The translations under genes were made by a program, and so were the position numbers. A stretch of DNA of 64,000 nt from Escherichia phage 132, in sequence record MZ417521. One strand, 5' to 3'. Below, in pieces: positions 39,454 through 54,190 of the stretch; within the stretch, counting starts at the first letter, position 1; each line of letters starts with the position of its first letter. Under the pieces are notes generated by a model. It was not told where the DNA came from. It ran no database searches and saw only the letters and a program-made list of their open reading frames with translations.

Positions 39454-39924
39454 TTAATCATGTTTCCACACCCCATCAGTATTTGACCAAAGCCGCTGAT
39501 TATCTGATCCTCGCCACAGCTTTTTAGTCGGAAGATTTTTCTTATACTTCCCATCAATAATAACATCAACATATTTAAGCATTTCTAGTTGTTTAATATC
39601 TTCAAACTTATATCCTGTCCACAACCAAATGCTTTTATTGGGATAAAGATTTTTTACTGTTTGAACGATGCAATGAATAACATCTCGGTTATCAGGATAG
39701 AGAGGGTCACCTCCGGTTATAGTCAATCCTTCTATATAATCATTATTCAAACATTCAATCAATTGTTCTAGTGTTTCACCAGTGAATGGAATACCATTTC
39801 TAGCATTCCATGTTGATTTATTATAACACCCTTCACATTTATGCAAACAACCTGTAACGAAAAGAACGACCCTGCATCCAGGACCATTAACAAAGCAGCA
39901 CGGGTATATTCTGTCATAATTCAT
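39454..39924 (-). CDS. nrdG: anaerobic ribonucleotide reductase activating protein NrdG (radical SAM)
   Basis: CxxxCxxC cluster motif (CLHKCEGC); start set to ATG 39922-39924; position next to nrdD. Confidence 0.8.
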   Translation of the reverse strand: MNYDRIYPCCFVNGPGCRVVLFVTGCLHKCEGCYNKSTWNARNGIPFTGETLEQLIECLNNDYIEGLTITGGDPLYPDNRDVIHCIVQTVKNLYPNKSIWLWTGYKFEDIKQLEMLKYVDVIIDGKYKKNLPTKKLWRGSDNQRLWSNTDGVWKHD

Positions 39925-40751
39925 AATAATATCCAATTTTTCCAAGCTTCATCAGTAGAATTACAGCGTTTTAGTATAAGATGTCTAGAAACTTTTATGG
40001 CATTTGAGCACTTTTTAATTGAATCATATTTAATACCGTCAACTGAAACGGTTTTGCTAGTTGGAGAAATTTTTCCATACATTGGATTTTTTGAACCAAC
40101 TTGAAGTCCTTTTAAAGCTTTTGAAAGCTTTTGTCTAGATTCCAATGACATGGGAGAATTCTTTTTACCTTCAATAATTCGCTTGCGATGAAGTTCGCGT
40201 TCTTCTTCACTCAAAGAATTGTAATATTTTTTAACACCGTTTGATATAGATAATTTATCTTTCTCAGACCGCTCTCCAGCTAATTTACTTCTAACATCTT
40301 TTCGCTTCATAGCTATGCTTACGGCTTTATTTAAATTTGCTTGATGCTCTGGCGTACGTTTATATTTCTTTAAAGCACGTGAAATAGCTATTTTAGTTTC
40401 TTCTGTTCTCTTTTTACCTTTATTTGCTAAACTATTTTTGTGGCGATGTTCAAGTGTCTGTTCATAAGCAGTTCCACCTTTTCCACCGGGTTTAATATTA
40501 TATGTATTTTCTTTTAGACAATACTCTTCGGTTACAAGTTCAGCTTCTTTATCATACATTTGTTTTTCATTATCAAAAACATGTAAAATTTCTTTATTAA
40601 AATTTTTTCTACCATATTTTAATAAAGCGGCACGAATCAATGTTCCTGATCCCATATAACCGTCATTTATGTTATCGGTGCTATGCGCACCGATATATTC
40701 CTTTGAATTAATTATATTTGTTATTTTATAAATTATATAATACCTATGCAT
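39921..40751 (-). CDS. free-standing GIY-YIG homing endonuclease (seg-like), 276 aa
   Basis: N-terminal GIY-YIG motif (YIIYKITN...EYIGAHS); basic C-terminal repeats typical of NUMOD-type DNA-binding tails; wedged between nrdG and nrdD with overlaps on both sides. Confidence 0.75.
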   Translation of the reverse strand: MHRYYIIYKITNIINSKEYIGAHSTDNINDGYMGSGTLIRAALLKYGRKNFNKEILHVFDNEKQMYDKEAELVTEEYCLKENTYNIKPGGKGGTAYEQTLEHRHKNSLANKGKKRTEETKIAISRALKKYKRTPEHQANLNKAVSIAMKRKDVRSKLAGERSEKDKLSISNGVKKYYNSLSEEERELHRKRIIEGKKNSPMSLESRQKLSKALKGLQVGSKNPMYGKISPTSKTVSVDGIKYDSIKKCSNAIKVSRHLILKRCNSTDEAWKNWILL

Positions 40752-42561
40752 GTTTTACTCGTTTTACCATTTCTTTCATTTTACCTAAATTCCATGGAAC
40801 AACGCTAGGAGTTCCAAGATATCCGCATGTTCTTCTTATGGTGTTCATCTTTTTAGGATCAGTTTCTCCACAAATAGAACAAACAAATCCGTTTTCAGTA
40901 GGAGTCATTTCATGGGTACTTCCGCATGTAAAACATTTATCTACTGGCATATTAACACCAAAATAATCTAAATGTTGTGCAGCATAATCCCATACAGCCT
41001 CAAGACCCTTTAGGTTATTTTTCATATCAGGAAGTTCAACATAAGAAATGTGACCACCTGTCGCAATGAAATGATATGGGGCTTCGCGAGAAATCTTTTC
41101 AAATGGAGTAATATTTTCTTCTACTGAAACGTGGAAACTGTTAGTGTACCAGCCTTTATCGGTAACATCTTTTACACTTCCATATTTTTCGGTATCAAGT
41201 TTACAGAAGCGATAGCACAGGTTTTCAGCAGGAGTAGAATACAAACTAAAAGCAAAACCAGTTCTTTCAGTCCATTGTTTAAGATGAGTATTCATTTTAG
41301 TTAAAATTTCTTGTCCAATATCACGACCAACAAGAATATTCAATTCGTGAATACCAATGTATCCTAGGGACACTGAACTTCTACCGTTTTTAAATAACTC
41401 AATTATGTCATCGTCAGGTTTAAGACGAACCCCGAATGCACCTTCTTGGTAAAGAATAGGAGCAACAGTCGCTTTAACTCCTTTTAAGGAACTAATTCTA
41501 CACATCAATACTTCAAAACATAAATCCATTCGTTCATTGAACAATTCAGTAAATTTCTGTTCATTGAACTGTGTTCCAATATAAGAATCTAACGCAATAC
41601 GAGGAAGATTCAGTGTTACAACACCAAGATTATTACGTCCATCAAGAATTTCATTACCAGTCGAATCTTTCCATACGCCCAAGAAACTACGGCAACCCAT
41701 TGGAGAAACAGGAATAGATGAACCTGTGATAGCTTTATTGTTCTTAGCCGAAATGATGTCAGGATACATTCTTTTGCTTGCACACTCTAGAGCAAGCTGC
41801 TTAATATCATAGTTCGGATCGTCTTTATAAAGATTAACACCTTCTTCAACGAACATAACAAGCTTAGGGAAAATAGGAGTTATCCCATCACGACCGAGAC
41901 CTTTAATGCGATTTTTCAGAATTGCTTTCTGAATCATTCGTTCAGTCCAGTCAGTTCCCGTACCAAATGTAATTGTTACAAAAGGCGTTTGTCCGTTTGA
42001 ACTAAAGAGAGTATTTACTTCATATTCATAAGCTTGGAACGCATCGTATACGTCTTTTTCTGTTTTAGACTGGGCGTAATTCAACGCGTCAGCGATTTGC
42101 CATTTTTCTGCGTCCTCAATATGTTTTGCATAGGTGCGTTTAACATAAGGAGAAAGGACTTTATCTACATTCGCAAAAGTCGTTCCACCATATTGATGGG
42201 AAGCAACCTGTGCAGTAATTTGTGCCATAATTGCAGTAGCAACGCCAATTGATTTAGGAGTTTCAATCTGTGCATTACCGAGCTTAAATCCGTTCTCAAG
42301 CATTCCTTTTAAATCTACTAAACAGCAATTAGTAAATGGAAGAGCAGGGGAATAATCAATATCGTGGAAATGGATAATTCCGCTTTCATGCGCTTTCATA
42401 ATAAAAGACGGGACCATATTTTTGGCAATGTGTTTAGACACAATACCAGCCATAAGGTCCCGTTGAGTTGGAAAAACACGAGAATCTTTATTAGCATTCT
42501 CGTTTAAAAGGTCTTTATTAGTTTTATGAATTAATCCTTCAATTTCTTTTTCAATTGTCAT
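40744..42561 (-). CDS. nrdD: anaerobic ribonucleotide reductase NrdD (glycyl radical enzyme), 605 aa, intronless
   Basis: C-terminal glycyl radical motif RRTCGYLG and zinc ribbon (CFTCGS...CSICG); T4 NrdD length as one ORF. Confidence 0.9.
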   Translation of the reverse strand: MTIEKEIEGLIHKTNKDLLNENANKDSRVFPTQRDLMAGIVSKHIAKNMVPSFIMKAHESGIIHFHDIDYSPALPFTNCCLVDLKGMLENGFKLGNAQIETPKSIGVATAIMAQITAQVASHQYGGTTFANVDKVLSPYVKRTYAKHIEDAEKWQIADALNYAQSKTEKDVYDAFQAYEYEVNTLFSSNGQTPFVTITFGTGTDWTERMIQKAILKNRIKGLGRDGITPIFPKLVMFVEEGVNLYKDDPNYDIKQLALECASKRMYPDIISAKNNKAITGSSIPVSPMGCRSFLGVWKDSTGNEILDGRNNLGVVTLNLPRIALDSYIGTQFNEQKFTELFNERMDLCFEVLMCRISSLKGVKATVAPILYQEGAFGVRLKPDDDIIELFKNGRSSVSLGYIGIHELNILVGRDIGQEILTKMNTHLKQWTERTGFAFSLYSTPAENLCYRFCKLDTEKYGSVKDVTDKGWYTNSFHVSVEENITPFEKISREAPYHFIATGGHISYVELPDMKNNLKGLEAVWDYAAQHLDYFGVNMPVDKCFTCGSTHEMTPTENGFVCSICGETDPKKMNTIRRTCGYLGTPSVVPWNLGKMKEMVKRVKHA

Positions 42562-43031
42562 TTTAAACTCTTTCTAAGCTGCTTCTTAAATGAAGCTATT
42601 AATTGTGTTTTAGTGTCAGATTCATTATATTCAAATCCTCTTTGAAGCATCTCAGCCATCATTTCCTCTTTTCCTAAACGAGAAAATTCCTTTGATTTAT
42701 CTCCAACAAAGTTAGGGTGAATATTATTTTGGGTGTAATCGGATTTTAAATAAGTAAGTAAATTTTCTAACCATTCAAGATAATCAACACCTTGTCCCTT
42801 TAAGCCAGAACGATTAAATTTGTGTTTCATTTGACCTTCTGCTGCATTACAGAGATTACAGAGCAATCCACGTACCTTTCCAGCTTTCGGTCCATTTAAT
42901 TCATGGTCATGGTCAAGGTGATTAGCTTGAACATCAGGATTTAATTCTCGTTGGCAAATTAAGCATTTACCGTTTTGTGCATTATAAAATTTTTGTTTTT
43001 CTTCTTTGTATAATTTGCCAGTCAATAACAT
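42558..43031 (-). CDS. 49: endonuclease VII (Holliday junction resolvase), 157 aa
   Basis: zinc-binding N-terminus (CLICQ...HLDHDH) and T4 gp49 length. Confidence 0.85.
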   Translation of the reverse strand: MLLTGKLYKEEKQKFYNAQNGKCLICQRELNPDVQANHLDHDHELNGPKAGKVRGLLCNLCNAAEGQMKHKFNRSGLKGQGVDYLEWLENLLTYLKSDYTQNNIHPNFVGDKSKEFSRLGKEEMMAEMLQRGFEYNESDTKTQLIASFKKQLRKSLK

Positions 43032-43080
43032 AATAAAACCCTTACCTTAAATAGATAAGGGTATTTATTATTTTCAAGTA

Positions 43081-43527
43081 TTAAAACGCTCGGTCAGAAA
43101 AAGAAATTTGAGTTTCAAGCCATTCAATATATTCTGCCGCAGCTTGCATCAAATTTCCTTCATAACCATCGTTATTTTCTTGCGCAGCCAATTTAGCTAA
43201 TGCATATGAAATGCGTTCACCTTGAAAAGCGGCTTTAGGTTTATGAATAGCTTGATCAACTCGTTCTACAACTTCTTCAATTTCGCCATTTTCTACTGAT
43301 TCAGTATTCCACAAGCACCAATACGTAATTGGCTTATCATAGATGTTAATAATCTTTCCGTCAGAAAGTTCAATTTCAATAATTCCAGTATCAGGTTCTA
43401 TATCATCTTCGCATTCTTTTGCAAGTTCACGAACTTTAAAGACAGTACCTGCACTAAGTTCCGGCCAGTAATTACACAACCCTATATCAGCACGATTAAT
43501 TCTAAACCACTTATCTACTGTAATCAT
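43081..43527 (-). CDS. hypothetical protein, about 148 aa (position of T4 pin)
   Basis: track start is TTG; ATG at 43525-43527 preceded by GGAGA. Confidence 0.4.
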   Translation of the reverse strand: MITVDKWFRINRADIGLCNYWPELSAGTVFKVRELAKECEDDIEPDTGIIEIELSDGKIINIYDKPITYWCLWNTESVENGEIEEVVERVDQAIHKPKAAFQGERISYALAKLAAQENNDGYEGNLMQAAAEYIEWLETQISFSDRAF

Positions 43528-43650
43528 GTCCCATCTCCATATCAATTAAGTCATTTATCGTTGGTTCATTATATACTGTTTCTTCATCAGTGTAAACCGG
43601 TTCTTCCGGCTCTGGCTCTACTGTTTCCCATCTAGCCGTCCACCAAGGTT

Positions 43651-43959
43651 TTATAGCGTAATCCATTCTCGTACTGTCTGAGTTACTACACGTTCTCGTA
43701 GTTCAACTAACTCAACAGTTGGAACTGCATAATACCAGTCAGAATGATAAGAACCTGAACGGCATTCATTTACGGAAACATGTACATTATGTTTTGGGCT
43801 AAAATAAACACACTGCCGATATTGGCATTTGCCATCTTGTACCCAGTCTTCTATTTCGACGGGTTTAAGATAATCCGAAAAATCGAAATCATAATTTTCT
43901 GAAAATGCATCATGGTCTTCGATTATTTCACTCAAAACTGCATCAACATCGTAAATCAT
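43651..43959 (-). CDS. hypothetical protein, 102 aa
   Basis: ATG ORF. Confidence 0.45.
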   Translation of the reverse strand: MIYDVDAVLSEIIEDHDAFSENYDFDFSDYLKPVEIEDWVQDGKCQYRQCVYFSPKHNVHVSVNECRSGSYHSDWYYAVPTVELVELRERVVTQTVREWITL

Positions 43960-43961
43960 AT

Positions 43962-44177
43962 TTACCCCAGTTTAACCATACAATCGCCATATTTCCATTT
44001 AGAAATAGACTTTTCACCATTAGAATAATAAACTTCGAGTTTAGCGCGGCCATTTTTAATTTGAATAACCTTTGCTGTCATCAAAGTTCCATATCCATAA
44101 TAAACTGCAACCTCATCACCCACATATACCGCGCTTCCGCGGTAGTCATGGATATAATCAGTTCCTTCAAGCATCAT
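43962..44177 (-). CDS. small hypothetical protein, 71 aa
   Basis: ATG ORF overlapping nrdC stop. Confidence 0.45.
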   Translation of the reverse strand: MMLEGTDYIHDYRGSAVYVGDEVAVYYGYGTLMTAKVIQIKNGRAKLEVYYSNGEKSISKWKYGDCMVKLG

Positions 44178-44437
44178 TTAAAGTATTCCCGCAATTGGTC
44201 AAATCCACCAATATGACTTCCATCAGGAGCAAATACTTGTGGCATCGTCAAACCAATTTGAGTATCACGACCTAGTTTAGTCAGAAGCTCAGCGATTTTC
44301 TCATCATCAAAAACACCTTTTTCCGGCATAATGTTGATAAATTCAAACGGCTGTTTCTTCACGGTCAAAAGACGTTTTGCATTATCGCAATACACACATT
44401 TGTGGATGTTGCTATCATAACCATATACTTTAAACAT
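44174..44437 (-). CDS. nrdC: thioredoxin/glutaredoxin NrdC, 87 aa
   Basis: CVYC active-site motif; T4 NrdC length. Confidence 0.8.
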   Translation of the reverse strand: MFKVYGYDSNIHKCVYCDNAKRLLTVKKQPFEFINIMPEKGVFDDEKIAELLTKLGRDTQIGLTMPQVFAPDGSHIGGFDQLREYFK

Positions 44438-44438
44438 A

Positions 44439-44681
44439 TTATTCCTTAATTCCTAGTACTTGTTTAAAAATCTCGTCATAATCAAGACTTTGGCCCGTTT
44501 GTTCTTTATGTTTGTATATAATATCACTTACTTCTGATAGCATATTTTTATATGAACGAGTTAAAGCAGATTTAAGAACGCTATATCTATCAGGAAATTT
44601 ACCGTGTTCATTATAATAAGCTATTGCTAATTCACGGACTGCTTTTTCAGCAATCTCCATATATTCTTTACGCTTGGTCAT
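44439..44681 (-). CDS. small hypothetical protein, about 80 aa
   Basis: track start is TTG; ATG at 44679-44681. Confidence 0.4.
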
Positions 44682-44985
44682 TTTCTTCTCTCTCAAATCG
44701 GTGTTTGCAATGACGACATTTATATTCAAGCTCTGGTTTACGCCAGTTAATCAATTGGACCTGTTCAGTACCACATTTTGGGCAGTTCGGAACATTCTTA
44801 GAAGCCCTTTCGCGGCGTTCAACCATAACCATAATGGCATCCCAAGCAGGAGGTTTAAAGTCTAGATCGTCACAGCCATGAATCTTTCCACGCATTTCTA
44901 AATCGTCTTCTTCACCAGCCATAATAATTTTAATTAGACTGGAATTACTTGAAGCTGCAATATCTTCTAATAAGCGCTTTTTCAT
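44668..44985 (-). CDS. small zinc-ribbon protein, 105 aa
   Basis: ATG preceded by GAGG; C-terminal CPKCG...CRHCKH. Confidence 0.45.
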
Positions 44986-49365: not shown

Positions 49366-49420
49366 AATAATCTCAATTAAAAGGGCTTAGAACCATTATA
49401 CCATCCTTGGTATAAAGCGG

Positions 49421-49948
49421 TTATGCGAGTACCGTCTTTAACCGTTCTTCAAACTTCCGAAGAGTATTTTGGCGTTCAGCTCTTTGCTTTTTGTAAGTTT
49501 CAATACGCTCTGAAATGAGAGTGTATCGTTCATTTACTGATTCTTTCATAAAATCAGGAATTTCACGAGAAGCTTTAATCTCGTCAAATTTATCAATAAC
49601 AGCTTGCTCTTCAGCAATTAAGTTATCATACATTAAAATATCTTTCTTGATAAACTCAATATCTTCTTGAGTTACACGAGATAATTTAGATGCTTTATCC
49701 TTTTTGTACTGTTCGTTAGTATCACGAGACCAGTGTAATGTACGATTTTTATTCGTATTTTTGTAAATTTCTACAATACCAATCTCATCAATAATAACGA
49801 TCCAATTCCAACGGGATTTGTAAATTTGTCCTCCATCAACAGTGATTTCACCTCCGATTGAGATGTCATTAAAGAACTTGCTTTGCGCTTCAGATTTAAA
49901 TTTACCATCGTTGTAATTTACTAAGTTGAAAATATCTTTAGCGTTCAT
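49421..49948 (-). CDS. hypothetical protein with C-terminal coiled coil, 175 aa
   Basis: ATG directly behind a PeS promoter-leader cassette. Confidence 0.55.
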   Translation of the reverse strand: MNAKDIFNLVNYNDGKFKSEAQSKFFNDISIGGEITVDGGQIYKSRWNWIVIIDEIGIVEIYKNTNKNRTLHWSRDTNEQYKKDKASKLSRVTQEDIEFIKKDILMYDNLIAEEQAVIDKFDEIKASREIPDFMKESVNERYTLISERIETYKKQRAERQNTLRKFEERLKTVLA

Positions 49949-49964
49949 TTTCTGTTCCTCCGTA

Positions 49965-50006
49965 GTTGATAGTTGTATAGTACCACAGAGGAACAGTCTT
50001 GTAAAC
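49965..50006 (-). promoter_or_regulatory. PeS-like early promoter cassette
   Basis: gtaaac 50001-50006, atagta 49977-49982; conserved 20-bp block 49965-49984; flanked by 7-bp inverted repeat gttcctc/gaggaac. Confidence 0.55.
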
Positions 50007-50008
50007 CA

Positions 50009-50311
50009 CTAAAAGAAACTTCTTTCACAATTTTTTCCACTGAACCATGCGCTTACCGCTTTCTTAGTCTCAGGAGCAGTGTTATCCATAAACCATTCAA
50101 AGGCAGCCTTTTTATGATTCTGGAGGGCTTCTCGGGCTTTAATCTGCTCACGGTCTATTAACACTAACATATGAGCCTTTCTTGTCACCATGGGCTTCTT
50201 ATGATTTTTTGAATACTCCCAATCATTTGTCCATCGCATCGTTGTTGCGAACTGATGAACCGCGTCTTTAATTTTAGTTTCATAAATTTCACGAGCCTTT
50301 GAGTATAACAT
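50009..50311 (-). CDS. hypothetical protein, about 100 aa
   Basis: ORF with GGAGG inside the first codons of the track start; ATG at 50309-50311 has better spacing. Confidence 0.4.
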   Translation of the reverse strand: MLYSKAREIYETKIKDAVHQFATTMRWTNDWEYSKNHKKPMVTRKAHMLVLIDREQIKAREALQNHKKAAFEWFMDNTAPETKKAVSAWFSGKNCERSFF

Positions 50312-50393
50312 CATTACCTCCATTTACCAGTTTAATTCTAGTCATCTTTTTAATGGCAGTCCATATAATCTATTTCTGAACTGCCTTTTTGTC

Positions 50394-51113
50394 TTAGGAT
50401 TCTTCTAAATGTCTTTTCTGAAAAGTTGATACCATACTACGATACGGTTCATTTGGATACCCGTGTTTTATAGCTTCCTTTGTAAATTTTCTCCATCCAT
50501 ATTTAGTTTCTTTCCAAAGCTCGAATAATTCATCTTCATATTGCCATATAGTTAAATGAGAACGCTTTGCAGCTTTAATTCCATTAATATGCTTTTCTTT
50601 TACTACAGGATTGCTTAGTTTCTTTTTAATAATATTACTAACTTTTCTAACAAAAACTGGGTCCTTATATCGTTGCGAAGTTTTTATTGAAGTGTTTAAT
50701 TTAGCTTCCGGCGTGGATGTGACCTCTTTCATCTTTTTCTTCATATGCTGTATATGATTAGGATTTTTCCATAAATTTATAGAATGCTTTTTGCATTTTA
50801 TCCTAGTTTCATCTGCAACCTTTCCTCCTTCACCCCCGTATGACAGGTTAACACAGTTTTTTCCATATTTCAATTTACCTGCCATGATATATAATATTTC
50901 AGCTTGTACCATTTTATCATAATTATCAAAAACTTCTAAAACCGTTTTTGATAATATGTGGTCATTTGACACTTTTACACGTTCTATATAATTTCCACTA
51001 CCAACATACGAATCATTGATGTTATTAGTTATATGTCGACCATAATAGTATTTCTTAATACCTGTCTTTAAATTTAATATTTCAGTTTTATAGATAGTAA
51101 AATATTTTTTCAT
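50394..51113 (-). CDS. free-standing GIY-YIG-like homing endonuclease, 239 aa
   Basis: N-terminal FTIYKTEI...YYYGRH (GIY-YIG-like with YYG); basic C-terminal half; start ATG overlaps the stop of the AAA+ gene. Confidence 0.6.
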   Translation of the reverse strand: MKKYFTIYKTEILNLKTGIKKYYYGRHITNNINDSYVGSGNYIERVKVSNDHILSKTVLEVFDNYDKMVQAEILYIMAGKLKYGKNCVNLSYGGEGGKVADETRIKCKKHSINLWKNPNHIQHMKKKMKEVTSTPEAKLNTSIKTSQRYKDPVFVRKVSNIIKKKLSNPVVKEKHINGIKAAKRSHLTIWQYEDELFELWKETKYGWRKFTKEAIKHGYPNEPYRSMVSTFQKRHLEES

Positions 51114-52078
51114 TTTAATAATACCGTTTCAGCAATTTCTTCCCAATGATTTTTGTCGGTCATAATGAAGTCAGCAAGATAAAGAGCAGTACGCAGTGAA
51201 ACATTGCGTAAACGATTAACATTGACTTTCATCCATGATAATGCTTTATAAGTTTCTTCATCAGAAAGACCGCGCTTTTGCATCATGTCAGTTGAAAGAA
51301 TAACATCTTCAACCCTGACCATAATTTCTTCATTAGTATGAACACCCAAATCTAAATAAACTGAGCGGGACACTAATGCTTGTAAATGTGGAGCAAGTTT
51401 AGTACCACGGTCTAATTCGCGGTCAATGTCAACGTTTGTGATAAAAACAATCGTTCCTTTAAATTCAAACTCACGGTCAATGCCTTTTTCTTCTAAGTAA
51501 GAAGATGCAGTGCTCCAGCAGACTTTACGGGTCTCTCCAGTGTCCAGAGCAGCTTTTAGAAGATTAAGAATGTCCATATCAGAGAAAACATCCACATCAT
51601 CAATCAAAAGGACAGAATTCTCTTCACGATTGTTCCAAAGCTGCTCATAAAGACCAATACCAGAGATTTTACCATTAATGCTTTTATATTCAATGTATCC
51701 ATTATCATTTGCTTTATTTAAAGCTTTATCTAAAGAATACGTTTTACCAATACCTGCTGCGCCAGAGATAATTAATGAACGAATATTTCCATTAATAATA
51801 CCATTCGTCATCATTCCCATAACATTAAATCTTTTATTAATGCGGGTTTTCATATCTTCATATGATTCTTTAACTTCTTCAACTTTTACACCATCATATG
51901 AAATATCTGATTTGTAAACCCAAACACCGCGACGTTTACCGTCAATTTCAACAAAAACTTTACCATCTCCTTGTGCATCTACCGGAGCATTATCTGGGAA
52001 CCATTCGCCTAAGAGCTCAAAAGTTCCAGAGATTTCTTTACCGAAGTAGATACCCTTATTGATAGTTACAGTTTTCAT
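51110..52078 (-). CDS. AAA+ ATPase, about 322 aa
   Basis: Walker A GAAGIGKT and Walker B LLIDDVD; start set to ATG 52076-52078 because the track ORF runs through the upstream terminator and promoter. Confidence 0.6.
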   Translation of the reverse strand: MKTVTINKGIYFGKEISGTFELLGEWFPDNAPVDAQGDGKVFVEIDGKRRGVWVYKSDISYDGVKVEEVKESYEDMKTRINKRFNVMGMMTNGIINGNIRSLIISGAAGIGKTYSLDKALNKANDNGYIEYKSINGKISGIGLYEQLWNNREENSVLLIDDVDVFSDMDILNLLKAALDTGETRKVCWSTASSYLEEKGIDREFEFKGTIVFITNVDIDRELDRGTKLAPHLQALVSRSVYLDLGVHTNEEIMVRVEDVILSTDMMQKRGLSDEETYKALSWMKVNVNRLRNVSLRTALYLADFIMTDKNHWEEIAETVLLK

Positions 52079-52100
52079 TTTATTCTCCAAATCTGTATCA

Positions 52101-52142
52101 GTTGATAGTTGTATAGTACCATAAAGCTTTATGCTTGTAAAC
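52101..52142 (-). promoter_or_regulatory. PeS-like early promoter cassette driving the AAA+ ATPase gene
   Basis: gtaaac 52137-52142, atagta 52113-52118; conserved block 52101-52120; leader GATACAGATTTGGAGAAT-AAA-ATG nearly identical to the copy at 24.6 kb. Confidence 0.55.
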
Positions 52143-52164
52143 CGTTTTGTGAAAAAATTTCTGA

Positions 52165-52192
52165 AATAAAAAAAGGGAGCCCGAAGGCTCCC
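52165..52192 (-). terminator. intrinsic terminator (gggagcc-UUCG-ggcuccc plus U-run) downstream of the NTase-like gene
   Basis: gggagcccgaaggctccc at 52175-52192 preceded on plus strand by aaataaaaaaa. Confidence 0.7.
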
Positions 52193-52194
52193 TA

Positions 52195-53208
52195 TCATTT
52201 ATAATAACTTCGGTGGTTTTCAAGATAAACCCTCTCAAGGAAGTCATCCCAGAAACCCATGTCTACTTTTTGCTGCATACCGTTCTTAGAAGCTTCAATG
52301 GATGCTGCTTCTACTTGATCGACCACATCTTCCAAAAACTCTTGAACAGTTTTAAATGGATGTTTACCCAACTTCACGTCGAGAATAAATGGAGCATCTT
52401 GGAGTGGATAAACCAAGTCGCCAGTTTTGTAAATTTCCAATAGTTGGAGTCCACCACGACAAGCATGACTCAAAGCTTTCCAGTCAATACCCTCATTCGC
52501 TTCAGCTTTACGAGCACGTTCGCCGTATTCAGCATCAAGTTTATTCAAAGACTGCTTAAGCTCAATAAGAGAAAGAGTTGTCTGATATTTACGACCCAAC
52601 ACAGTATAGAACGTTTGTGGGCCTGTTTTCTCATGATTGTGGAACACCCATTCACAGAACTCGTTTTCTGGAAGACGATGCTTAATATCTTCAACTTTAG
52701 TTCGACGCTGCTTAATGGAACCGTCTTCTTGGTAATCAACCCATTGCTCGGGGATTTGATTAACTACTTTCAATACATCACGTAATGCAGCCAAACGAGA
52801 ACCCTTGACACCGTATTTAGAAGCTTGCTTGCGGACATATCCTAAATATGATTTCATGTTAGTCGTATAAAAACGAGAACGGTTGTCTTGAATAAACTTC
52901 CACACATCAGGCAAATCAGATTTAACCACTAGTTCAGGTGGAGTGTGAAGCATATCTAATGCTACAGTTTCACCATCTGCTGCTAATTTAAAGAAATATT
53001 TAAGACTGTATAGTTCATGGTCAATATCATCTTTAGTGTTTTTAGATGATGTGTTGTTAGTATTTTTACTCATGTGCTCTTTAACATTTCCAATAAGAAT
53101 ATCGCGAGCAGGAGGAACAAAGATTTCTTTAAAATCTACATCAGATTCTGGAGTAGAAGTTCCATAAAGATGACTACCAAAATAGCTTTTCATTACTGTT
53201 TTCATCAT
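52195..53208 (-). CDS. nucleotidyltransferase-like protein (Pol-beta superfamily signature), 337 aa
   Basis: N-terminal G-S-x3-G-x6-D-V-D (YFGSHLYGTSTPESDVDF) and a later acidic strand candidate (VALDML); about 280 aa helical C-terminal region. Confidence 0.5.
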   Translation of the reverse strand: MMKTVMKSYFGSHLYGTSTPESDVDFKEIFVPPARDILIGNVKEHMSKNTNNTSSKNTKDDIDHELYSLKYFFKLAADGETVALDMLHTPPELVVKSDLPDVWKFIQDNRSRFYTTNMKSYLGYVRKQASKYGVKGSRLAALRDVLKVVNQIPEQWVDYQEDGSIKQRRTKVEDIKHRLPENEFCEWVFHNHEKTGPQTFYTVLGRKYQTTLSLIELKQSLNKLDAEYGERARKAEANEGIDWKALSHACRGGLQLLEIYKTGDLVYPLQDAPFILDVKLGKHPFKTVQEFLEDVVDQVEAASIEASKNGMQQKVDMGFWDDFLERVYLENHRSYYK

Positions 53209-53666
53209 TCAGCCTTATATTCAATAACAGGACATACTTTAGCTTTACGAGCTTTTAAAAATTCAACGATAACCGATTTCTTGGGTTGAATAGGAGGTAA
53301 ACCTTTATACGCCCTATCAATATTTTCTACGTGTAAAGCATAATCCTTTTTCCATTTATAATCTTTATATTTTTCACGCAAATGTACAGGAATAACAAAT
53401 GAACCGATAATAAGTAAAACGAGCAAAATGGCAAGTATAAATGCTGATGGAAGAAGAGTCCATAAACTACCGAAAATAAGCCAACGTTGTAGGCTTTCTG
53501 CACAAATAATTGTTAGCCCTACGAGTATAGCACATCCAAAAATAGAAACGAAAAATGTAGGAATGGCAATAGACCAAAAATATGCGCATAGTGTCTTAGG
53601 TCGTTGCCATTCATCGTTAAACAATTTGAATAATTTATAGTGCCAAGAGTTTTCATTAATAATCAT
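53205..53666 (-). CDS. membrane protein, 153 aa
   Basis: ATG ORF; 2-3 predicted TM helices; ATGA-type overlap with the NTase-like gene. Confidence 0.5.
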   Translation of the reverse strand: MIINENSWHYKLFKLFNDEWQRPKTLCAYFWSIAIPTFFVSIFGCAILVGLTIICAESLQRWLIFGSLWTLLPSAFILAILLVLLIIGSFVIPVHLREKYKDYKWKKDYALHVENIDRAYKGLPPIQPKKSVIVEFLKARKAKVCPVIEYKAE

Positions 53667-53668
53667 AA

Positions 53669-54190
53669 TTATCCTTTCATTGAAGGCGTAACAGTTGTTA
53701 AATACCTAATCATAGCCTCAGCTTCTGATTTTGATAGTGAAATTTCTTCACCGTTTTGACGAATAGAAATAAAATCTGGATGACGGTCACCACCAGCTTT
53801 TAAAACACACATATAAGTATCAGTTTCATCTTCAATATCTGAAATAATTGAAGCAGTTCCGCATGAATGTGGTTTTTGATAAATCAATGCAGCTTTTCTT
53901 CCACCGTTTGACTGTTCATAAACTTTTAATACATCAAACAAATCACTTCTTTTATCAATAGCTAAAATGTTATTTTCATCTTCAATGTTAAATCCTTCGG
54001 ATACTTCATAAAGTGTTACCCATAAATCACCGATGTCAATAACAGCATTTACTTTTCCACGGCTTTCAAGAGTATGACAAATTTTCTTGATTTCGTCATA
54101 ACTCATTTTAATAATATCATCTCCTTGACTAAGAAAGATGTCATTTTTAAATTCAACACGAATTAAACCGCTTTCACTTGAAATAAACAT
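53669..54190 (-). CDS. hypothetical protein, 173 aa (paralog of 54197-54730)
   Basis: ATG ORF; C-terminus SKSEAEAMIRYLTTVTPSM resembles TKDEAIALKTYLDSVIPTM of the neighbour. Confidence 0.5.
   Translation of the reverse strand: MFISSESGLIRVEFKNDIFLSQGDDIIKMSYDEIKKICHTLESRGKVNAVIDIGDLWVTLYEVSEGFNIEDENNILAIDKRSDLFDVLKVYEQSNGGRKAALIYQKPHSCGTASIISDIEDETDTYMCVLKAGGDRHPDFISIRQNGEEISLSKSEAEAMIRYLTTVTPSMKG

Follow-up and report, generated by a model that had tools for sequence, protein, structure and literature searches.

In T-even phages, the Seg family of GIY-YIG homing endonucleases is well studied, and for T4 SegB experimental data on cleavage, homing and amplification are available (PMC2988022, Table 1; PMC13096335). 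Two seg-like GIY-YIG homing endonuclease genes have been counted in each of phages RB32, RB14 and RB51 (PMC2993671, Table 5). A gene of this type lying directly after nrdC.10, hereafter called the seg gene, was analyzed in a 64-kb window, i.e. the whole stretch of 64,000 nt under study. SegB, the sole T4 locus matched by tblastn, was 27% identical to the predicted seg protein over residues 21-186 (E 6e-13), and the two have in common a YxG-H...D-Y-GSG...E...N-L-GGxGG core, a basic helical C-terminal half and a free-standing gene situated between conserved genes. However, the SegB site is a tRNA gene cluster whereas the seg gene is at the nrdC.10/nrdC.9 junction, and the last ~50 residues, which form a three-helix domain, gave only chance-level fragments with SegB (E 0.3 and worse); moreover, SegB is backed by experiments whereas the seg protein is known from sequence. 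SegH of T6 and U5, encoded between nrdD and nrdG, was 31% identical over the first ~150 residues (E 3e-12) with the same GIY-YIG core, and segH begins within the end of the upstream nrdD, as the seg gene does within that of nrdC.10; in contrast, SegH has 276 aa and contains by Pfam a NUMOD3 motif and an I-TevI-type DNA-binding C-terminus, neither of which Pfam found in the seg protein, and its genomic site, and presumably its target, differ. T4 SegE (205 aa; between inh/hoc and uvsW) was 34% identical over 111 catalytic-domain residues (E 2e-9). I-TevI is encoded in the T4 td intron, whereas the seg gene is free-standing, and the seg protein lacks a Zn finger and is only ~16-18% identical to it.

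The region 49400-53700 matched Tequatrovirus genomes, among them RB14, AR1, RB32 and T6, at 97-98% identity, and its minus-strand gene order was that of the T4 early region (nrdC, nrdC.1 ... nrdC.11); the source is a Tequatrovirus (T4-like coliphage). The seg gene (50394..51113, minus strand) is an intact ORF of 239 aa plus stop with an ATG start, and its translation begins with MKKYFTIYKTEILNLKTGIKKYYYGRH, in agreement with the N-terminus given in the initial annotation of this DNA. Since the plus strand reads 'tcat' at 51110-51113, i.e. ATGA on the coding strand, the seg ATG shares bases with the TGA that ends the upstream AAA+ ORF, as had been noted there. The gene is equivalent to RB32ORF093c, labeled in GenBank since 2006 as 'putative site-specific intron-like DNA endonuclease; similar to seg', and to its T6, RB14 and RB51 orthologues; a seg-like endonuclease label is also carried by the T6, RB14, RB51 and AR1 records, and the protein matched PHROG 314 'homing endonuclease' (E 1.8e-30). 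Copies were present in 66 records, RB33 among them, all being at least 95% identical (51 at 99-100% and 15 at 95-99%). Thus, the gene beside nrdC.10 is already known by public annotation and is experimentally uncharacterized, and no paper naming or testing it was found in searchable publications by locus tag, accession or neighbor genes; as one more uncharacterized member of the Seg family it carries little weight alone. The name 'segE' given to it in the AR1 and RB68 records was rejected as a statement of orthology: SegE occupies another locus, aligns in the N-domain only and has 205 instead of 239 aa, so that 'segE' is here a loose family name.

The gene had been described as the second of its kind, which is correct because a family profile found exactly two Seg-like ORFs in the 64-kb window, 50394..51113 and 39921..40751 (minus strand), in agreement with the two genes counted in each of RB32, RB14 and RB51. 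The other ORF is segH, which encodes a 276-aa protein 98% identical to T6 SegH and lies between nrdG and nrdD (40744..42561), the end of which is overlapped by the segH start.

From the evidence described below, we consider it likely that the ORF is a Seg-type free-standing GIY-YIG homing endonuclease gene carried on a 731-bp cassette directly after nrdC.10. Curated profiles gave little help in this assignment. No Pfam match was obtained at E<=1 with the whole protein or at E<=10 with three sub-fragments including the N-domain, the gathering scores of the GIY-YIG profiles PF01541 and PF19835 were not reached, and searches of NCBIfam and of PDB sequences with the single protein returned nothing and no relevant match, respectively; a profile search for GIY-YIG and NUMOD domains, suggested earlier as a check, therefore found neither of them in Pfam for the protein itself. 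As a control, T4 SegB passed Pfam GIY-YIG (PF01541) with 28.3 bits against a cut-off of 22.6, whereas T6 SegH was sub-threshold. A word-indexed search with the single sequence retrieved only 2 proteins, and the family was reached only by exhaustive phmmer, which yielded 1419 relatives at E<=1e-3; among 80 relatives, Pfam detected SegE_GIY-YIG in 23, GIY-YIG in 9 and NUMOD3 in 26. BLASTP likewise aligned the N-terminal ~100-170 residues with SegB, T6 SegH and T4 SegE (E 6e-13, 3e-12 and 2e-9, respectively).

Examination of the aligned relatives revealed that most of the residues expected of a GIY-YIG nuclease are conserved. The Tyr of 'GIY' (Y8, in T-I-Y8) was invariant in 80/80 and 99/99 non-gap sequences, the 'YIG' motif is represented by Y23-Y-G25 (Y23 in 79/80, G25 in 80/80), and both the metal-binding catalytic Glu (E72) and the conserved Asn (N89) were invariant in 80/80 and 103/103. 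In the 80-sequence alignment, Y36, G38 and G40 were also invariant, and H27, D34, S39, G93 and G94 were nearly so. When the family profile was compared with the PDB, the I-TevI catalytic domain was the sole match, in register but weak (E 0.47); hhalign to I-TevI gave a probability of 78% and E 1.7e-5, pairing Y8 with Y6, Y23 with Y17, G25 with G19, E72 with E75 and N89 with N90. The counterpart of I-TevI R27 is less evident: the candidate is R45, on a predicted helix (41-48). Among 103 relatives, 63 have R and 12 have K at this position, but the closest orthologues have H or F, two of them with R at 44, and hhalign places R27 opposite a gap. An AlphaFold2 model built with a 103-sequence alignment had a mean pLDDT of 83.8 (>90 over residues 1-95), and its N-domain is beta-beta-alpha-beta-alpha, GIY-YIG-like with a three-stranded antiparallel sheet; the prediction thus contains the fold whose absence had been named beforehand as grounds for refuting the assignment. 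Foldseek with the full-length model gave no significant match. Because of the homology to Seg proteins, the invariant residues and the hhalign alignment with I-TevI, the GIY-YIG assignment made in the initial annotation holds despite the null results with Pfam, NCBIfam and PDB, and a Seg protein that escapes Pfam and NCBIfam can still be securely assigned via its homologues and predicted structure. The protein keeps the catalytic Tyr, Tyr-x-Gly, Glu and Asn of the family.

Three parts can be recognized in the protein: 1) a GIY-YIG catalytic domain (residues 1-97; 50823..51113, minus strand) with Y8, Y23, G25, H27, Y36-x-GSG40, E72, N89 and G93-G94, 2) a basic helical linker or putative DNA-binding region (residues 100-186; 50556..50816, minus strand; pI 10.5), composed of five consecutive predicted helices of ~15 residues each with four 17-residue proline-phased repeats (P118, P135, P152 and P169), and 3) a C-terminal three-helix domain (residues 187-239; 50397..50555, minus strand) with the pattern W190...GYPxExY...F, which is probably an HTH-like module reading the DNA sequence. 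NUMOD1 and NUMOD3 of Pfam had no match in the seg protein, compared with the 26 of 80 homologues that contain NUMOD3. Residues 100-239 contain 32 K+R versus 15 D+E (pI 10.0), and the C-terminal half is thus basic as first described.

The gene stands alone between nrdC.10 and nrdC.9, both of which are intact, and is not within an intron or intein. The cassette was placed at 50398..51128 (731 bp) by pairwise alignment with T4 and by the BLAST breakpoints of seven occupied and seven empty-site genomes; empty sites have 34 bp there in T2-type phages and 38 bp in T4, and the breakpoints were the same in all 7 seg+ genomes. In T4 and T2, which lack the gene, the gap between nrdC.9 and nrdC.10 is 94-101 bp. 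At 50394..50397, the seg TAA stop lies in sequence common to T4-type empty sites (CTAAGAC), and the cassette border therefore falls one base upstream of the stop; T2-type empty sites have CTATGAC instead. Among 502 Tequatrovirus records that have the junction, it was occupied in 66 (13%) and empty in ~436 (~87%), and a seg orthologue was found in 7 of ~143 Jiaodavirus records. The comparison of the insertion point proposed earlier thus revealed a precise site with presence/absence polymorphism in two genera.

Fixed differences between the 7 seg+ and 7 seg- genomes were all inside the cassette interval. In ~1 kb on each side, no seg-linked single-nucleotide polymorphism that could mark a co-conversion tract or a distant cut site was found between the two classes; instead, these flanks were a mosaic of polymorphisms common to both. 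Among the 7 seg+ genomes, nucleotide diversity was 0.0074 in the cassette versus 0.020-0.032 in nrdC.8, nrdC.9 and nrdC.10, i.e. ~3-fold lower than in the flanks, the diversity and linkage comparisons being based on a small sample of 14 genomes. Low diversity in the cassette together with unlinked flanks is the pattern expected if the cassette had moved recently among backgrounds that were already diverged.

Three diverged orthologues with 44-46% identity over the full length were found, one in the Jiaodavirus Klebsiella phage ValerieMcCarty03, one in the metagenomic T4-like contig L018 and one in contigs L031/L032, all of them immediately 3' of an orthologue of nrdC.10 (74-78% identical to that of the window). 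The seg lineage has therefore kept one site across phage genera while its protein diverged to this level. Scans of IMG/VR with the seg protein and with an alignment of four orthologues gave a single further copy (99%) plus seven distant relatives of the N-domain, and no new orthologues.

The initial annotation had further suggested that the unit of a nucleotidyltransferase (NTase) and an AAA+ ATPase beside the gene may have arrived with, or be mobilized by, the endonuclease. The first of these genes, nrdC.11 (52195..53208, minus strand), encodes an RlaP-family nucleotidyltransferase (Pfam PF10127, E 3.3e-11; PHROG 388), is present in T4 and lies outside the cassette. The second, nrdC.10 (51110..52078, minus strand), encodes an AAA+/P-loop ATPase-like protein of 322 aa counted from M41 (PHROG 1250, with weak AAA/STAND Pfam matches); it is present in T4 without the seg gene, its 3' end abuts the seg gene in the window, and the cassette ends within its last codons. 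Since both genes are conserved across genera whether the seg gene is present or not, being found in T4, in T2 and in the 87% of relatives that are seg-less, they were not brought by it, and import of the pair with the endonuclease was rejected. Of the earlier interpretation, the GIY-YIG homing endonuclease stands and the joint arrival does not.

In the window, the AAA+ ORF extends to 362 aa. It appears over-extended because PHROG 1250 covers residues 41-362, RB32 and T6 annotate 322 aa, and both a promoter-like site and a GC-rich terminator hairpin followed by a U-tract fall within the 40-codon extension (52079..52198, minus strand); the true start of nrdC.10 is most likely M41 (52078), and there would therefore be no overlap with nrdC.11. 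The strong intrinsic-terminator-like hairpin with its U-tract is located at 52174..52193 (minus strand), between nrdC.11 and nrdC.10, and is followed by the promoter-like site at 52113..52141 (minus strand); a terminator and a promoter are annotated at the equivalent nrdC.11/nrdC.10 position in the record of phage Lutter.

On the other side, nrdC.9 (50009..50323, minus strand; DUF7203, Pfam PF23833, E 1.9e-15), annotated in RB32 and T4, forms the downstream flank. Between it and the seg stop, a conserved hairpin with a 9-bp stem (GGCAGUUCA...UGAACUGCC; 50355..50385, minus strand; RNA fold z = -3.1) was detected, which belongs to the shared flank and not to the cassette because the identical sequence is present in the empty sites of T4 and T2. 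For the seg gene itself, no T4 late promoter (TATAAATA) was found nearby, no sigma-70-like site stood out above shuffles, no convincing terminator of its own was seen, and a hairpin sequestering the ribosome-binding site at the start was not found (z = -0.42). Most likely, the gene shares a transcript with nrdC.10 and is coupled to it in translation.

Comparison of the two alleles also provided a candidate target. In seg+ genomes, the 3' end of nrdC.10 (51110..51130, minus strand) reads GAA ACG GTA TTA TTA AAA TGA (ETVLLK*), with the ATGA overlap, instead of GAG GTT ACT CTT CTG AAA TAA (EVTLLK*) at the empty site. Thus, in the seven rewritten codons including the stop (GAAACGGTATTATTAAAATGA), 10 of the 21 bases differ between the alleles, whereas the encoded end stays nearly the same. 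The same ETVLLK*/ATGA junction was present in L018 although its endonuclease is only 44% identical, and in the Jiaodavirus seg+ allele differences from the empty allele occur within the last four nrdC.10 codons and the intergenic hairpin is replaced. With an 89-nt probe, the empty site proved strongly conserved, being at least 80% covered in 435 records and at least 95% identical in 451 of 504 matching records. Consistent differences between alleles were confined to the rewritten 3' end of nrdC.10 and the spacer that had been replaced. Because seg+ alleles rewrite the last nrdC.10 codons, these are the likely target and immunity site; we infer that recognition, and probably cleavage, would span the stop codon of nrdC.10, and that seg+ genomes may be protected by the insertion together with the rewritten codons. 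The comparative data thus point to a concrete candidate target, the last codons of nrdC.10 and its stop. However, characterized Seg enzymes frequently cleave at a distance of tens to hundreds of bp from the insertion site, and a target at the junction is therefore not guaranteed. Cutting at a distance from the gene has likewise been described for characterized members (PMC13096335).

It was also noticed that the T4 nrdC.10 end (L002, 10336-10373) has two 1-nt insertions relative to other empty-site phages and thereby ends in ...ATGYSSEINS* instead of ...AEVTLLK*. These insertions are inside the proposed target and could alter the sensitivity of T4 to the seg endonuclease.

Based on these observations, the following course of homing can be proposed. 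The seg gene, without a promoter of its own, would be read from the promoter upstream of nrdC.10, and its translation, coupled to the nrdC.10 stop (ATGA, weak Shine-Dalgarno sequence), would remain low. Upon co-infection of seg+ and seg- phages, the C-terminal modules would bind the seg- allele, which would be cut near the nrdC.10 stop codon within the conserved ...GCTGAGGTTACTCTTCTGAAATAATTCATAAGAGG..., the break being expected at or near ...CTTCTGAAATAATTCATAAGAGG... of the empty allele. Repair by T4-type recombination-dependent processes would then copy the cassette and part of the adjoining DNA from the seg+ partner. That partner would itself be immune, since in its genome the cassette takes the place of the intergenic part of the site and the last six nrdC.10 codons are rewritten with little change to the protein end (EVTLLK to ETVLLK). 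The gene may serve as a convenient extra system for the study of intronless homing or as a possible source of a new GIY-YIG specificity.

Not all copies are intact. In RB3 (L021, 301-1027), RB10 and G157lw (L022, 995-1713) the gene is split into two ORFs, by a 7-nt insertion in RB3 and RB10 and by a different disruption in G157lw. These copies are either decaying genes or sequencing errors; frameshifted copies suggest that the gene is dispensable and decays, and they fit the usual invade-and-decay cycle. They would also fit a defunct passenger, a Seg descendant that no longer cleaves and owes its patchiness to ordinary recombination and deletion among T-even phages, and the divergence of the protein beyond the Pfam GIY-YIG and SegE models, the lack of conservation of the candidate catalytic Arg among the closest orthologues and the mosaic flanks in both classes, which indicate that general recombination is rampant at the locus, are in line with such a relic. 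However, the ORF is intact and at least 99% identical at the nucleotide level in 51 records, and the family-invariant residues are all kept even in the orthologues of 44-46% identity, which argues for long-term purifying selection on the catalytic core. The ~3-fold lower diversity of the cassette relative to its flanks and one precise site polymorphic in two genera also speak against a relic, and we regard this explanation as unlikely.

An active endonuclease might alternatively serve a main role other than self-propagation, its breaks driving the exclusion of markers or the segmental amplification of loci in the vicinity. In T6, SegB, which tblastn identified as the closest T4 paralogue, has been reported to cause uvsX/uvsY-dependent segmental amplification of anti-defence loci including gp49.1-nrdC.1 (PMC13096335). 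Amplification of gp49.1-nrdC.1 was SegB-dependent and tandem and occurred under OLD defence, gp49.2 being the anti-OLD factor (PMC13096335). By analogy, breaks made beside nrdC.10 and nrdC.11 could conceivably promote co-conversion or segmental amplification of these two genes or of further accessory genes, for which this hypervariable early region is a hot spot, although we give this a low probability; were it true, seg+ phages would gain rapid escape from host defences or exclude the markers of co-infecting phages. The earlier suggestion that the NTase/AAA+ unit is mobilized by the endonuclease survives only in this form, and nothing in the data shows either co-conversion or amplification. 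Against such a role, tandem amplification around the seg gene was not seen in the sequences examined, nrdC.10 and nrdC.11 have no known function, and 87% of close relatives live without the gene; in addition, the role is compatible with homing instead of being an alternative to it. As the main function it appears quite improbable. The idea of a chance GIY-YIG motif in an unrelated basic DNA- or RNA-binding protein, to which the lack of direct Pfam, NCBIfam, PDB sequence and significant Foldseek matches might lend some credit, appears effectively refuted by the significant pairwise homology to SegB, SegH and SegE, the in-register I-TevI domain as the sole PDB match of the family profile and the hhalign result (E 1.7e-5), leaving the homing endonuclease as the preferred reading.

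Several further features of the surrounding region were observed. Orthologues of gp49.1-nrdC.1 are located at ~43000-44730 of the window, a few kb from the seg gene. In other Tequatroviruses, the spacer between nrdC.10 and nrdC.11 (equivalent to ~52079-52194) is a hot spot for the insertion of unrelated genes, with inserts at 2996-3481 of L007, 2944-3353 of L008, 2988-3746 of L009 and 3628-3828 of L015. In T2 and HY01 the spacer contains a gene for a ModB-like RNA polymerase ADP-ribosylase; ACG-C40 and JE01 have DUF4031 together with a small ORF, slur07 has a 252-aa ORF, and KMB22 has one of 66 aa. At 53205..53666 (minus strand), the T4 HNH homing endonuclease gene mobD is absent and a 153-aa predicted membrane ORF is present instead, which the RB32 record describes with the words 'replaces mobD'; this is a second polymorphism at a homing endonuclease gene site within 3 kb.
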